From Methanobacteriota archaeon (lineage in GTDB: Archaea > Thermoplasmatota > Poseidoniia > Poseidoniales > Poseidoniaceae), in the NCBI GenBank assembly GCA_002720275.1, contig PBHR01000023.1:21600-85599 (forward strand): a DNA stretch of 64,000 bases. The letters are read 5' to 3'. Below are positions 13,560 through 54,057 of this stretch, in pieces; positions within the stretch are counted from its first letter, which is position 1; each line of letters opens with the position of its first letter. The notes under the pieces are model-generated. The model worked only from the letters and a program-made list of their open reading frames with translations, had not been told where the DNA came from and made no database searches. The translations under genes and the position numbers were made by a program.

Positions 13560-13805
13560 CTACCTTCTTAAAAAAATAGACCCTTCTAACCTATCAATTT
13601 CACTCGGAGGTACTTGAACAATATTATCTTTAGCAGTCCAAGGTAATTTAGTTGAATCGAGTCCTTTTTCTAATTTAACACAAATAAATTCAACATTACC
13701 ATCATCATAATTTATATGTATTTCAGTAACAACGCCAAGTAATTCTTTACTTTTATCAAATACTTCCCTGCCTACGAGTTCATATCCGAAAACTGTAACA
13801 CTAAT
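13560..13805 (-). CDS. PRC-barrel domain protein with a putative non-canonical ATT start
   Basis: Not in the ORF track. An 84-codon frame is open directly after the CDC48 TGA and in the same frame, with no ATG/GTG/TTG anywhere in it. It translates as ...ISVTVFGYELVGREVFDKSKELLGVVTEIHINYDDGNVEFICVKLEKG..., a PRC-barrel pattern. GAGGTGA overlaps the CDC48 stop, 4 nt before the ATT at 13805-13803. Confidence 0.55.
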   Translation of the reverse strand: MSVTVFGYELVGREVFDKSKELLGVVTEIHINYDDGNVEFICVKLEKGLDSTKLPWTAKDNIVQVPPSEIDRLEGSIFLRR

Positions 13806-13814
13806 ATTCTCACC

Positions 13815-49744: not shown

Positions 49745-51679
49745 TTATCTTCCCCAAAAATGGTCCTTAATTCTATGAATTTCGATTAATTCCTGTAGAA
49801 TTTCATTTTCTGAGGCGCTTAAATCCATTTGTTGTAGTTTTGAAGCATGAGCGCTAGGAATATCGACTAAAAGTATATCCTCTTCATCTACTTGCCTTCC
49901 TATAGTTACTCCTTTAATTGCTAAAGCAACCTCTTCACCATTTTCTGCTATCTTCAAAGTCTCTTCTCCAGTCCTAATAGAACGTATTTGACCTACTCTT
50001 TTACCATCCAATTTTAATAAATTTTGACCAACTTGAATTCTACCTCCCAATACTTTAATTCCCACTACTGCAGGATTATTTCTTCTAAAAACATGATCCT
50101 TTAATAACTTAATTTTACCAGGATGAACTAAATTTTCTCTTTTTGATTCTGCTAATTCTCTTTTTCTAAATTCTAACCATTCTTCAAATTTTTCAATAAT
50201 ATGATAAATCACTTGGCCAGGAATTAACTTGACCTCATTATTTTTTTCCAATACTTCACTAGCTTCCCTACTCACATTTGTATTAAATGATAAAATTGCA
50301 CAATGTAAAGGATTAGAAGATACTTCAGCGGCTCGAATATCTTTTTTCTTTACTTCTCCAATAGTCGCTGAACGTATAGGAATACTAATTTTATCTAATT
50401 CGAATGCTAGTGCCTCTAATCCTCCTAAAGTATCTGATTTAATTACAACTCCCTCTTCTTCCAATTGTACTGAAATTTTTGATTCATTTTTTGCAGATTT
50501 AAATCGTGAAAATGCTTCGGGGCTAATCTCTTGTAAAATTATAGTTCTCTGTTTTTTAATTTCTGAAACTCTGTCCATTTTTCCATCTGCATTGGCTCGA
50601 GCGATGTCCGAAGTTAATTTTTGTACTTTTTGAAGTTTTAATGCTTCATTTTTAGGAAATACTCGCAAAGTTGTTCCAACTAAAACCTGTTCAAAATTTG
50701 GACCGTTTATCTTAATTCCTCCAGCTGCATTAACGGTTTCCACAGAATCCCATCTATCTCCTGCGTCACGCATTTCACTCATACCTCTAGGGGAAAACAT
50801 CCCTTTAATGTGAGACCAAAATGGACCTTCTTGAGACACTAACAATATTTCATCACCTTTTGATAATTGACCTTTATACAAAATTAAGTCCAATGTTTTC
50901 CCTAAACCTTGTTCATCTTTTAATTCAATAATCGTACCTTCTGCATCACCAACAACATCTTTCAATCTATCAACGAGAAATCTTTCTGCTAAACCTACTG
51001 TAATAGCCAATAAATCTTGAATCCCTTCACCTTCCTTAGCAGAGCAAGGTACAGCCGCAATAGTATCCGTAAAATCACTAATTTTTGAATATAAATCAAC
51101 ATTAAACCCATGTTCTGAAAGTTTTCCAACAAGTTCCCAAAACCTTTGTTCAAATAAGCCAAGAGTTTCTTTTGATTGGTTTTTCAATGATTGTGCAGTA
51201 CTTCTATTAAACTTGCATTCCCAACCATGAATCCTATCTACTTTATTTAATGCTAAAACAAAAGGGGTCTTTTGTTGCTTTAAAATACGAATTGATTCCA
51301 AGGTCTGAGGTTGGCACCCCTCCATAATATCAATAACTAAAATAGCAATATCAGCCAAAGCTCCTCCCCTGCTTCTTAATGCTGTAAATGAATGATGGCC
51401 TGGGGTATCAATAAACAATAAACCGGGTGAATCAAACTGTTTACCACCAAGTAATACACCACATACGTCATTAAGAAGTTCTGAAGGAATCTCTGTTGCA
51501 CCAATATGCTGAGTGATTCCACCCGCTTCTCTAGCCATTACAGAAGACTGTGAATCTATTCCTAATGAGCGAATATGGTCTAAAATACTAGTTTTGCCGT
51601 GATCAACATGCCCCAATACCGCAACTATTGGTTGTCTCTGTTTTACCTGATTACCGCTAGTCAAGACTGTAGCCCCCAA
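49745..51679 (-). CDS. infB: translation initiation factor aIF5B (IF2 homologue)
   Basis: Contains VLGHVDHGKTSILD, DTPGH and NKVD GTPase motifs in ~640 aa, and follows ndk as in many archaea. Confidence 0.95.
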   Translation of the reverse strand: MGATVLTSGNQVKQRQPIVAVLGHVDHGKTSILDHIRSLGIDSQSSVMAREAGGITQHIGATEIPSELLNDVCGVLLGGKQFDSPGLLFIDTPGHHSFTALRSRGGALADIAILVIDIMEGCQPQTLESIRILKQQKTPFVLALNKVDRIHGWECKFNRSTAQSLKNQSKETLGLFEQRFWELVGKLSEHGFNVDLYSKISDFTDTIAAVPCSAKEGEGIQDLLAITVGLAERFLVDRLKDVVGDAEGTIIELKDEQGLGKTLDLILYKGQLSKGDEILLVSQEGPFWSHIKGMFSPRGMSEMRDAGDRWDSVETVNAAGGIKINGPNFEQVLVGTTLRVFPKNEALKLQKVQKLTSDIARANADGKMDRVSEIKKQRTIILQEISPEAFSRFKSAKNESKISVQLEEEGVVIKSDTLGGLEALAFELDKISIPIRSATIGEVKKKDIRAAEVSSNPLHCAILSFNTNVSREASEVLEKNNEVKLIPGQVIYHIIEKFEEWLEFRKRELAESKRENLVHPGKIKLLKDHVFRRNNPAVVGIKVLGGRIQVGQNLLKLDGKRVGQIRSIRTGEETLKIAENGEEVALAIKGVTIGRQVDEEDILLVDIPSAHASKLQQMDLSASENEILQELIEIHRIKDHFWGR

Positions 51680-51691
51680 ACTAAGGGGCTA

Positions 51692-52144
51692 TCATCTACT
51701 TTCGTAAACCCATCGCTCACGATGAGGTATCCACTCATTAATTCCATCTGGAAACCACAGCCCTAATTCAAATGCTGCTGTATCTTGACCATCACTTCCA
51801 TGAACTAAATTATATCCCATATCCATTCCTAAATCGCCACGTATTGTTCCAGGAGATGCTTCTCTACCATTTGTAGGCCCGATGATTTTTCTTGCAACAG
51901 AAATTGCATCCTTACCTGACCAAGCCATTGCAACAACTGGAGATGAAGTTACGAATTTTATCAATCCAGGGTAAAATGGCCTTTCTTTATGTACTTCATA
52001 ATGTTTTGAAGCCAATTCTTCTGATGGAGTAAAACTTCTAAGCCCTACTAATCTCAATCCTTTTCTTTCAAAACGTGAGATAATATCTCCAACTAATCCT
52101 CTTTGAACACCGTCAGGCTTAATCATTACAAAAGTTGTCTCCAT
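51692..52144 (-). CDS. ndk: nucleoside diphosphate kinase
   Basis: Contains TFVMIKPDGVQRGLVG and NLVHGSD (active-site His) motifs. Confidence 0.95.
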   Translation of the reverse strand: METTFVMIKPDGVQRGLVGDIISRFERKGLRLVGLRSFTPSEELASKHYEVHKERPFYPGLIKFVTSSPVVAMAWSGKDAISVARKIIGPTNGREASPGTIRGDLGMDMGYNLVHGSDGQDTAAFELGLWFPDGINEWIPHRERWVYESR

Positions 52145-52166
52145 GATCTCACTTCAAATTAAAAAT

Positions 52167-52358
52167 CTATTTAATTCCACCTTTAACATAATGTCGTGTC
52201 CATTTAACCCTTCTAGGGTTTCTATTCAAATTAACCATGTTTTTTCTAGCCTTAGAACTTTTAAACCAAAGTACCGTTCCATCTCTTTTAACAAACATTA
52301 AACCCGTTCCAGGTTCAATCTCTTCTCCTGAGAAATTGCATATTCGGCGTTCAGGAAT
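52167..52358 (-). CDS. rpl24e: 50S ribosomal protein L24e (eL24) with a putative ATT start
   Basis: Not in the ORF track. The minus-strand frame reads (I)[56 protein letters not shown], which matches the L24e pattern. It sits in the expected slot between rps28e and ndk. No ATG/GTG/TTG precedes the conserved Cys, and GGAGGT lies 7 nt upstream of the ATT at 52358. Confidence 0.8.
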
Positions 52359-52359
52359 T

Positions 52360-52581
52360 TTAACGACCTCCTAATTTTCTTGCTTCACGTCCTGTATCCC
52401 TTAACATCAAAATATCACCAATTCTAATTGCTCCAACTACATTCCTTGTAATAATCCTACCAATGTCTCTAGGATTAGGTGCATCATTAACTCTAACTTT
52501 AACTTGAGTTGCTTCTCCAGTCATACCTGTTCTAGCTACAATTTCTACAACTTCTGCTGGCCAACCCAATTCTTCACTCAC
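52360..52581 (-). CDS. rps28e: 30S ribosomal protein S28e
   Basis: [23 protein letters not shown]...[30 protein letters not shown] is typical of S28e. It starts at GTG, with GAGGTG 6 nt upstream. Confidence 0.9.
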
Positions 52582-52591
52582 GAATTACACC

Positions 52592-52999
52592 TCAATTATT
52601 TGCATCTTTGATTTTACTAATTACTTTATCATATTTATCTTGAATAGCTTTTGGTATTTCTAACAAGGCGATGGATGCTGTTTTGACACCTTCAGGTAAA
52701 CCTGATTCTTTACCCAAATATTCTTGGTGTCTAACATACCCAAACGGTATTTCTTTTTCTTCACATATCATTGGTATATGAGCTAATAATTCAGGCGGAT
52801 TTATATCTTCTGCCATTACTATTAGTTTAGCAACGCCTCTTTCTGCAGCTTTAGTAACTTCGTTACTACCCCTACAAATGGCTCCTTCTTTGCAATCTGA
52901 TACCAAATCAAATATTGCGTCTTCTAAATCTTCTGGTGTTTCAAATTTCACATGCACAGTCACTGGATTCACAACCTCTTGGCACTTGCGCCACGACAT
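52592..52999 (-). CDS. rpl7ae: 50S ribosomal protein L7Ae (kink-turn binding)
   Basis: Contains VHVKFETPEDL...GSNEVTKAAERGVAKLIVMAEDINPPELLAHIPMICEEKEIPFGYV. The coordinates give the maximal ORF; the real start may be GTG 52963 (see findings). Confidence 0.9.
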   Translation of the reverse strand: MSWRKCQEVVNPVTVHVKFETPEDLEDAIFDLVSDCKEGAICRGSNEVTKAAERGVAKLIVMAEDINPPELLAHIPMICEEKEIPFGYVRHQEYLGKESGLPEGVKTASIALLEIPKAIQDKYDKVISKIKDANN

Positions 53000-53033
53000 G
53001 ATGGGTATAAACCCAACGCAGGAAAGTCTTTCT

Positions 53034-53963
53034 TCAATTTTCCATTAATTCATCAATTCCACGGCATAAAGCTGATGCTGAAGAAACTACTGATCGTGGA
53101 TTTTTTAGTGAATCTGAAGCAATTATTCCATCAACAAATTTATCTAATTTTGAAATTGCACCGCCTGTAAATAAACCGTGAGAACAAGCAGCAAATACCG
53201 CTTTTGCACCTTGATTCCGCAAAGCCTCACTCGCCCTACAAATTGTTCCACCGGTTGAAATCATATCATCCACAATAGTTACAACTGAATCATTAACATC
53301 CAAATCTTTAGCTTTATGAACAATCGTATGGGCATCAATTCTTGTTTTTTCTAAATATGAAAATTTGCATCCAATAGTTTCTGCCACAAAACTTGCTCTT
53401 TCTATTGCACCCTTATCTGGTGAAAGGATAAAATCAGGTTTAATTTCTGATTGTAAATATGTTGCGATTTCAGACATAGATGAAGCAAAAGACACTGGCA
53501 CAGGTAAATTCTCTAAAACCTCGGGGGCATGTAAATCTAAAACTGTTATACCATCACATTTTGAAGATAATAACATACCAATTGCCCTTGCAGAAACAGC
53601 CTCGCCCTGATTAAATCTTTTATCCTGTCTTGAATAGCCAAAATAAGGTATTGCTAAAAAAATTCCTGGGCCTGTGGGTTCACAATCAACACCTTTACCT
53701 CTGAGATCTTCAAGTTTACCTTGTCTAACATCATTTATTGCTTCTAATAGTAATAAAGTCTCAATAATACAGCTATCAGGAAATGTATTTGAAACTAAAA
53801 TTACTGATGTTGAACGAATTTTTTCTATACTTTTCTCAGGTACTCGAAAATAACCTTCACTGTCTGGAAAACGCCTTGCTTCCAAAGAATGGTGTTCGCA
53901 ACCTAGAATTTGAGCCATGCCTTCTGCAATATGCTTACAACTACTCCCAGAAACTACTAACAA
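53034..53963 (-). CDS. prs: ribose-phosphate pyrophosphokinase (PRPP synthetase)
   Basis: Has YFGYSRQDKRF and the PRPP-binding loop IVDDMISTGGTI. It starts at TTG. Confidence 0.9.
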   Translation of the reverse strand: MLVVSGSSCKHIAEGMAQILGCEHHSLEARRFPDSEGYFRVPEKSIEKIRSTSVILVSNTFPDSCIIETLLLLEAINDVRQGKLEDLRGKGVDCEPTGPGIFLAIPYFGYSRQDKRFNQGEAVSARAIGMLLSSKCDGITVLDLHAPEVLENLPVPVSFASSMSEIATYLQSEIKPDFILSPDKGAIERASFVAETIGCKFSYLEKTRIDAHTIVHKAKDLDVNDSVVTIVDDMISTGGTICRASEALRNQGAKAVFAACSHGLFTGGAISKLDKFVDGIIASDSLKNPRSVVSSASALCRGIDELMEN

Positions 53964-54057
53964 ATTGATTCCCTCAAACCGCCCGAGAGGTATCCCACAC
54001 TTGGAGTTATTTACTAATCAATTTTCATAATTAACATAATTCTTAGACAAATGAGAA

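Follow-up and report, generated by a model that had tools for sequence, protein, structure and literature searches.

Which codon starts the translation of a conserved archaeal gene whose reading frame offers no canonical start ahead of its conserved core? In reviews, the start codons given for archaea are limited to AUG, GUG and UUG (PMC7531240). The frame for ribosomal protein L24e that raises this question lies in the window, a stretch of 64,000 nucleotides of contig PBHR01000023.1. The genome to which it belongs measures 1.8 Mb in 53 contigs, has 34.5% G+C and comes from an uncultured Marine Group II archaeon of the Poseidoniaceae, the family that also includes the published MG-II chromosome CM001443. 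Few archaea of the surface ocean are more abundant than those of Marine Group II, which, to our knowledge, are known only from assembled genomes. The reading that is favoured here, with a probability of about 0.85, is that the L24e gene is intact and expressed, and that its translation would start at an AUU codon (52358-52356); the evidence for it is comparative, drawn from genomes, metagenomes and RNA contigs.

The S28e-L24e junction

A compact minus-strand operon of the window contains, in this order, the genes for PRPP synthase, L7Ae, S28e, the L24e frame, ndk and aIF5B. The arrangement L7Ae-S28e-L24e-ndk is conserved, with four Pfam matches in order here and the same order on public contigs. 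The features of the junction are the following:

52999..52592, minus strand: L7Ae gene (Pfam match)
52581..52360, minus strand: S28e gene, the cistron upstream of L24e (Pfam PF01200, 88 bits)
52373-52371, minus strand: in-frame TAG bounding the L24e frame on its upstream side (direct reading)
52371-52366, minus strand: Shine-Dalgarno (SD) sequence GGAGGT, the Gly-Gly codons near the S28e end (direct reading)
52362-52360, minus strand: S28e stop TAA, 1 nt upstream of the ATT
52358..52167, minus strand: L24e coding sequence read from the ATT, 63 codons and a TAG stop (Pfam PF01246)
52358-52356, minus strand: proposed L24e initiation codon ATT, aligned with the start codons of relatives
52298-52296, minus strand: first in-frame ATG of L24e, codon 21, the start taken by Prodigal-type callers
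52169-52167, minus strand: L24e stop TAG, the end of the frame
52144..51692, minus strand: nucleoside diphosphate kinase (ndk), the downstream neighbour (Pfam PF00334, 177 bits)

The first-pass annotation, made from the letters alone, had seen an L24e-like frame between rps28e and ndk, and this frame is real: its match to Pfam PF01246 reaches 72.5 bits (cut-off 27), with residues 5-57 aligned to profile positions 4-55, its neighbours are confirmed, and it is the single L24e copy in the whole genome. The upstream in-frame TAG and the lack of a canonical start before the conserved Cys, both claimed there, were found again. The codons after the TAG read GAG GTC GTT AAA ATT CCT GAA CGC CGA ATA TGC, and no ATG, GTG or TTG occurs in the frame from this TAG to 52298-52296. 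The first in-frame ATG had been placed 17 codons downstream of the ATT, which is a miscount, as it is codon 21 and lies 20 codons after it.

The GGA GGT of S28e had been proposed as an SD located 7 nt upstream of the ATT, at a distance typical of other genes. The motif stands at 52371-52366, and its spacer to the ATT (CGTTAAA) is indeed 7 nt long, inside the 6-9 nt over which GGAGG is placed in the canonical genes of this genome. The modal spacers of these canonical genes are 7 nt for GGAGG, 6 for GAGGT, 5 for AGGTG and 4 for GGTGA. An Rfam scan of 51000-54000 at a permissive threshold detected no RNA element at the S28e-L24e junction.

Many archaeal L24e proteins, such as those of Haloarcula and Methanocaldococcus, carry a four-cysteine zinc ribbon, while the protein encoded here keeps Cys-7 alone of the four (CNFS ... 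KSSKA). Eukaryotic L24e also lacks the zinc-ribbon cysteines, and the Poseidoniales protein resembles eukaryotic L24 in this respect; therefore, their absence does not exclude membership in the L24e family. The one-cysteine form (CNFS ... KSSKA) is present in all Poseidoniales sequences examined (loci L002-L111).

The start codon in related genomes

The junction was read in 30 relatives found by whole-genome search and in 80 further Poseidoniales species, taken from collections with one genome per species. In about 105 related Poseidoniales genomes the codon aligned with the ATT is ATG, rarely GTG or TTG: by far the largest number have ATG, a few have GTG, and TTG stands in two members of the same genus (G004 and G006) and in one other species. 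The residues that follow the aligned start codon are PERR[IV]C... (or AERR/VERR) in every relative. The ATT, which had been suggested as the probable initiator, is thus homologous to the codon at which L24e starts in all the relatives examined. Among the Poseidoniales genomes examined, ATT occupies this position only in the window genome (G000) and in GCA_002692465.1 (G001), a separate species of the same genus.

None of the four codons between the upstream TAG and the ATT, that is, GAG, GTC, GTT and AAA, is a one-base neighbour of ATG, so that the ATT is the only plausible L24e initiator. Downstream, codon 6 (ATA) is ATC in G001, and this ATA has no SD at a usable distance.

In a tree built from the 1.3-kb locus, ATG lineages are basal in the genus, and a derived clade with good support has the form ((G000,G001) ATT, (ATG lineage, (G006,G004) TTG)), the ATG lineage inside it being known from metagenome contigs. 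It follows from this topology that ATG changed once to ATT and once, on the sister branch, to TTG. On the phylogeny of the locus, the ATG-to-ATT change is assigned to the last ancestor that this species shared with its sister species.

A third close lineage, represented by short metagenome contigs (loci L245-L250), encodes an identical 63-residue L24e with an ATG start; its SD is weaker and differently spaced (AGGTGG). The GGAGG upstream of L24e is conserved across the genus. A stronger SD that compensates for the ATT was considered and rejected, because most ATG- and TTG-starting relatives in the genus also carry GGAGG, the weaker AGGTGG being confined to that one close ATG lineage.

Other near-cognate starts in the genus

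A PRC-barrel gene of the window had been put forward as a second AUU-initiated case, and the comparison upholds it, with ATT or ATC at the position in 8/8 genus genomes:

13805..13560, minus strand: PRC-barrel gene with ATT start (frame 13814..13560; ATT 13805-13803; GAGGTGA 13816-13810)

Its start lies 9 nt behind the Cdc48 stop, and no ATG, GTG or TTG occurs in its whole frame. The codon is ATT in 7/8 genus genomes and ATC in the remaining one (G003), and in 3/8 it immediately follows an in-frame stop. In other genera, an ATG or TTG is found one codon downstream of that position.

Three scans of the genome were carried out. One applied a codon-bias model in search of coding signal ahead of the first canonical start, another looked for near-cognate codons preceded by an SD at the correct spacing, and the third compared stop-to-stop frames, as reciprocal best hits, with those of a complete genome of the sister family (G039, 52% G+C), keeping only cases in which at least 12 residues before the first canonical start are conserved. 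The codon-bias scan also returned many Ser/Pro/Thr-rich antisense shadow frames, which were discarded by eye, and the G039 comparison gave many false extensions, reaching 5-10 residues into leaders, which were dropped. Apart from antisense shadows and over-extended BLAST alignments, the scans repeatedly pointed to one small set of genes. The enrichment of ATT behind an SD is only about two-fold (12/790 versus 0.74% overall), a weak signal when taken alone.

Together with the frame comparisons in the genus, these scans showed predicted near-cognate starts in at least six further conserved genes, those for S27e, the PRC-barrel protein, a biotin carrier, GGGP synthase, aIF2-gamma and a TPR protein. 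Besides the PRC-barrel gene, they are the following (contig and positions in the window genome, strand, start region):

C43:10818-10994, minus strand: S27e, AAGGTGAtaat ATT (loci L142-L147)
C5:65079-66311, minus strand: aIF2-gamma, GGGGGAttaaaa CTG, behind GGGGGA (loci L172-L201)
C32:7496-8314, minus strand: GGGP synthase-like protein, GGGGGTGAtttt ATA (loci L202-L207)
C34:33157-33588, plus strand: biotin carrier, GGAGGTGAattt ATT (loci L259-L264)
C22:20711-21712, minus strand: TPR protein, candidate, GGAGGgttttaa ATT behind GGAGG

The S27e start is located 9 nt behind the L44e stop and is ATT in the 6/6 genus genomes from which it was recovered, while other genera have ATG (GTG in one genome). 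In G000 and G001 the whole S27e frame is devoid of canonical start codons; the other four genus genomes have an in-frame GTG inside the SD. The CTG of aIF2-gamma is likewise found in 6/6 genus genomes, in four of them with no canonical alternative upstream, and in two Thalassarchaeaceae genomes (G028 and G036) a CTG stands right after an in-frame stop. The first canonical codon of the aIF2-gamma frame is codon 97, 96 codons downstream and past the P-loop, the GTP-binding loop. These two genes are less clean cases in part of the genus, as an in-frame GTG or TTG lies within a few codons upstream in four genomes for S27e and in two for aIF2-gamma.

The ATA of the GGGP synthase-like gene follows GGGGGTGA, and the first ATG of this frame is codon 73; ATA is present in 4/6 genus genomes, and ATG occupies the same position in 2/6. 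The ATT of the biotin carrier follows GGAGGTGA and is shared by four genomes, with a CTG directly after a TAA in G003, and ATG in G002 and in other genera. A 17-codon upstream ORF (ATG GGA CTA ... AGG TGA) ends inside the SD of this gene. For the TPR protein, the comparison with G039, a single distant genome, revealed conserved residues upstream of its first TTG.

Two weaker ATT-start candidates, both behind GGAGG, are a family-2 glycosyltransferase (C4:19967-21001, minus strand), in which a start at the first GTG would remove part of the conserved VIPT strand, and an ABC ATPase (C32:30454-31311, plus strand).

The first-pass annotation had suspected relaxed start-codon selection in the lineage, and this is borne out by at least seven genes in the window genome versus none in the sister-family control. 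The mirror-image scan of G039 yielded no convincing near-cognate start, although it is less sensitive because leaders are longer there (median 17 versus 11 codons), which qualifies the contrast of 0 versus 7. As a separate observation in G039, the alanyl-tRNA synthetase frame on the minus strand of its contig C1 (about 1138800-1141540) opens just 28 codons before the conserved block, where the G000 protein has 74 more residues than that of G039; the first canonical start of this frame falls within the conserved part, and a frameshift or an assembly error is possible in this case.

Proposed initiation at AUU: Shine-Dalgarno pairing and reinitiation

A strong and correctly spaced SD precedes 7/7 of the near-cognate genes, versus 95/628 (15%) of the ordinary, cleanly startable genes, and two of the three genome scans did not use the SD as a criterion. 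Six of the seven are also located 1-31 nt behind a same-strand upstream stop, the seventh being the biotin carrier.

Such proximity bears on whether AUU works only by termination-reinitiation after S28e with relaxed codon checking, as the first-pass annotation had hinted, so that de novo initiation at this codon would fail. This stricter reading is somewhat less likely than not. The S28e stop lies 1 nt upstream of the AUU, the other near-cognate genes start 9, 9, 12, 13 and 31 nt behind a stop or, for the biotin carrier, behind the upstream ORF, and reinitiation in which the SD is important is documented for Haloferax (Huber et al. 2019, as reviewed in PMC7531240). The S28e-L24e pair also has the layout of a coupled pair, with a 1-nt spacer, an SD within the last codons of S28e and a single transcript. 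Two metatranscriptome runs gave a 221-base contig that runs from inside S28e into L24e (52285-52505) and is identical to the window over 52290-52420, AUU included; because it spans the junction, both genes are co-transcribed. However, plain SD-led initiation fits these data equally, as 71/95 (75%) of the canonical SD-led genes are just as close to an upstream stop, versus 30% of the genes without SD. Therefore, since three quarters of ordinary SD-led genes are equally stop-proximal, reinitiation and a strong SD are inseparable from sequence.

The translation machinery of the genome has the usual components. An unusual initiator tRNA was rejected as an explanation, as nothing odd was seen among the 33 tRNAs found, which include a normal initiator-like tRNA with anticodon CAU. 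Loss of aIF1 was also rejected: the factor is present in 6/8 genus genomes and in every other genus, and in the window genome its gene has an ATG start behind AAGGAG. In a Sulfolobus in-vitro system, aIF1 is reported to discriminate against AUU (reviewed in PMC4705826), from which it follows that initiation at AUU should be inefficient unless an SD or reinitiation compensates. The efficiency of the AUU is probably reduced, and the SD or the coupling may offset this reduction.

In the proposed mechanism, strong GGAGGU pairing 7 nt upstream would hold the small ribosomal subunit over the AUU, with which the ordinary initiator Met-tRNA (CAU) would pair with a third-position mismatch. Ribosomes that terminate at the S28e UAA, 1 nt upstream, would probably add to this by reinitiating. 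As the initiator Met-tRNA would be the one to read the AUU, L24e is expected to begin with Met. AT-biased mutation (34.5% G+C) could plausibly have driven the changes from ATG to ATT or ATA, and in this AT-rich lineage SD-anchored near-cognate initiation seems to be tolerated as a regular mode.

It could also be argued that the near-cognate starts of the genus are more than tolerated drift and serve as a layer of regulation built into it, which seems doubtful. If this were true, the conserved CUG of aIF2-gamma, the subunit by which the initiator tRNA is carried, and the AUU of S27e and L24e would make the output of these genes sensitive to start-codon stringency, and they would form an archaeal counterpart of the bacterial AUU loop of IF3/infC and of the eukaryotic poor-context loop of eIF1.

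Coding evidence downstream of the ATT

The 63 codons of L24e in G000 and G001 differ by 12 synonymous and 0 non-synonymous codon changes, so that the proteins are 100% identical. Seven of these synonymous changes, and again no non-synonymous one, fall in codons 2-20, the 19 codons between the ATT and the first ATG. Assuming that some three quarters of random changes alter the amino acid, the chance of 7/7 synonymous changes is around 10^-4. The amino acids of this segment are conserved across the order, and it makes up the first third of the Pfam domain (profile positions 4-23).

These data bear on the possibility that L24e starts at the ATG of codon 21 and is a 43-residue protein with its N-terminal third missing. 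The frame contains no other ATG, GTG or TTG, and the 43-residue product has been called on at least 48 public contigs. Nevertheless, such a start is unlikely, as it would leave outside the protein a segment with purely synonymous changes, order-wide conservation and a match to the L24e profile, and the internal ATG has no SD upstream.

Still less probable is that S28e and L24e are fused by a +1 frameshift at CGU-UAA-A, or that the gene is decaying. The L24e frame is indeed +1 relative to that of S28e, and the two overlap at the stop, but in all relatives S28e and L24e are separate proteins, encoded with the same geometry and an ATG start, the S28e stop is conserved, and no slippery motif is evident; decay is excluded by the strict purifying selection together with the single copy.

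Authenticity of the ATT

The ATT was judged on assembled contigs. Those from three metagenome runs, which belong to different studies and years, show zero differences across the S28e-L24e junction. Eight further public contigs have the ATT in two haplotypes that differ at synonymous sites; the contigs with a called 43-residue L24e, which come from Tara, JGI and other assemblies, GCA_002498135.1 among them, all show it. The first-pass annotation had named as a refutation a canonical start in relatives through a 1-nt difference, which would suggest a sequencing error, and this scenario is excluded by the ATT in a second species, in many independent assemblies and in RNA. That the true codon is ATG can be given almost no credence, for although one G-to-T difference would suffice and the close lineage L245-L250, with identical protein, has ATG, the ATT recurs in the sister species amid different synonymous sites, in contigs of independent runs, in RNA contigs and in eight further public assemblies.

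Consequences for annotation

It had been predicted that genes of this kind would be missed by standard gene callers. This is correct for Prodigal-type calls and does not hold for the NCBI annotation, which uses these starts. An exact-sequence look-up showed that NCBI holds, for contigs of this genome, products that begin with M at the proposed codons: L24e of 63 residues, recorded on the 90,884-base contig, S27e of 58, the PRC-barrel protein of 81, aIF2-gamma of 410 and GGGP synthase of 272. These M-initial products imply that the NCBI pipeline already uses such starts. Non-NCBI calls shorten L24e to 43 residues (on at least 48 contigs) and GGGP synthase to 200; presumably, Prodigal-type calling truncates aIF2-gamma too, and for S27e and the PRC-barrel protein it finds no canonical frame.

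Truncated or missed calls distort marker-gene sets and protein catalogues. The eight genomes of the genus (G000-G007) have an estimated completeness of 58-85%, and most other genera of the order reach at least 90%. Markers lost or truncated through non-canonical starts could contribute a little to the low completeness.

Literature searches on start codons in Poseidoniales found no paper. The genus provides a natural example, across species, of archaeal starts at AUU, AUC, AUA and CUG given a strong SD, and its junctions are ready test sequences in which SD pairing or reinitiation can be set against archaeal start-codon proofreading.

Comparison with known systems

Near-cognate initiation is already known from bacterial infC, and L24e is, on comparative evidence, a well-supported new archaeal case. 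Of greater interest than this single gene is the cluster seen across the genus, with aIF2-gamma and two ribosomal protein genes among its members. In E. coli, pcnB is also AUU-initiated. L24e resembles infC of E. coli, which encodes IF3: both are conserved, essential, translation-related genes in which an AUU is combined with an SD and a normal initiator tRNA (PMC4705826), and in both the AUU is conserved among relatives and is not a one-off. They differ in that the AUU of infC serves autoregulation by IF3, while the AUU of L24e is known from sequence comparison. The fidelity factor is also different, since the archaeal aIF1 is another protein than IF3, encoded here by a gene of its own with an ATG start. 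Moreover, in this one genus the habit takes in at least seven genes and makes use of four codons (AUU, AUC, AUA and CUG).

In Deinococcus deserti (PMC2830850), several genes with non-canonical initiation codons were also missed by standard annotation. That organism is a bacterium, and its starts were verified by N-terminal peptides, in contrast to the archaeal cases presented here, which are based on comparative genomics and RNA. The coupling described in Haloferax volcanii (Huber et al. 2019; PMC7531240) shares with S28e-L24e a start near a stop, an SD in the upstream gene and co-transcription; the start codons of that work are canonical, and relaxed codon choice is not among its results.

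The study of start-codon turnover by Belinky, Rogozin and Koonin (2017; PMC5622118) regards AUG as ancestral and favoured, and switches away from it as rare; its reconstruction, which covers 61,358 ancestral AUG starts, contains 1 switch from AUG to AUU and 2 from AUG to CUG. Against this rate, several such switches would have taken place in one genus, among a few hundred SD-led genes.
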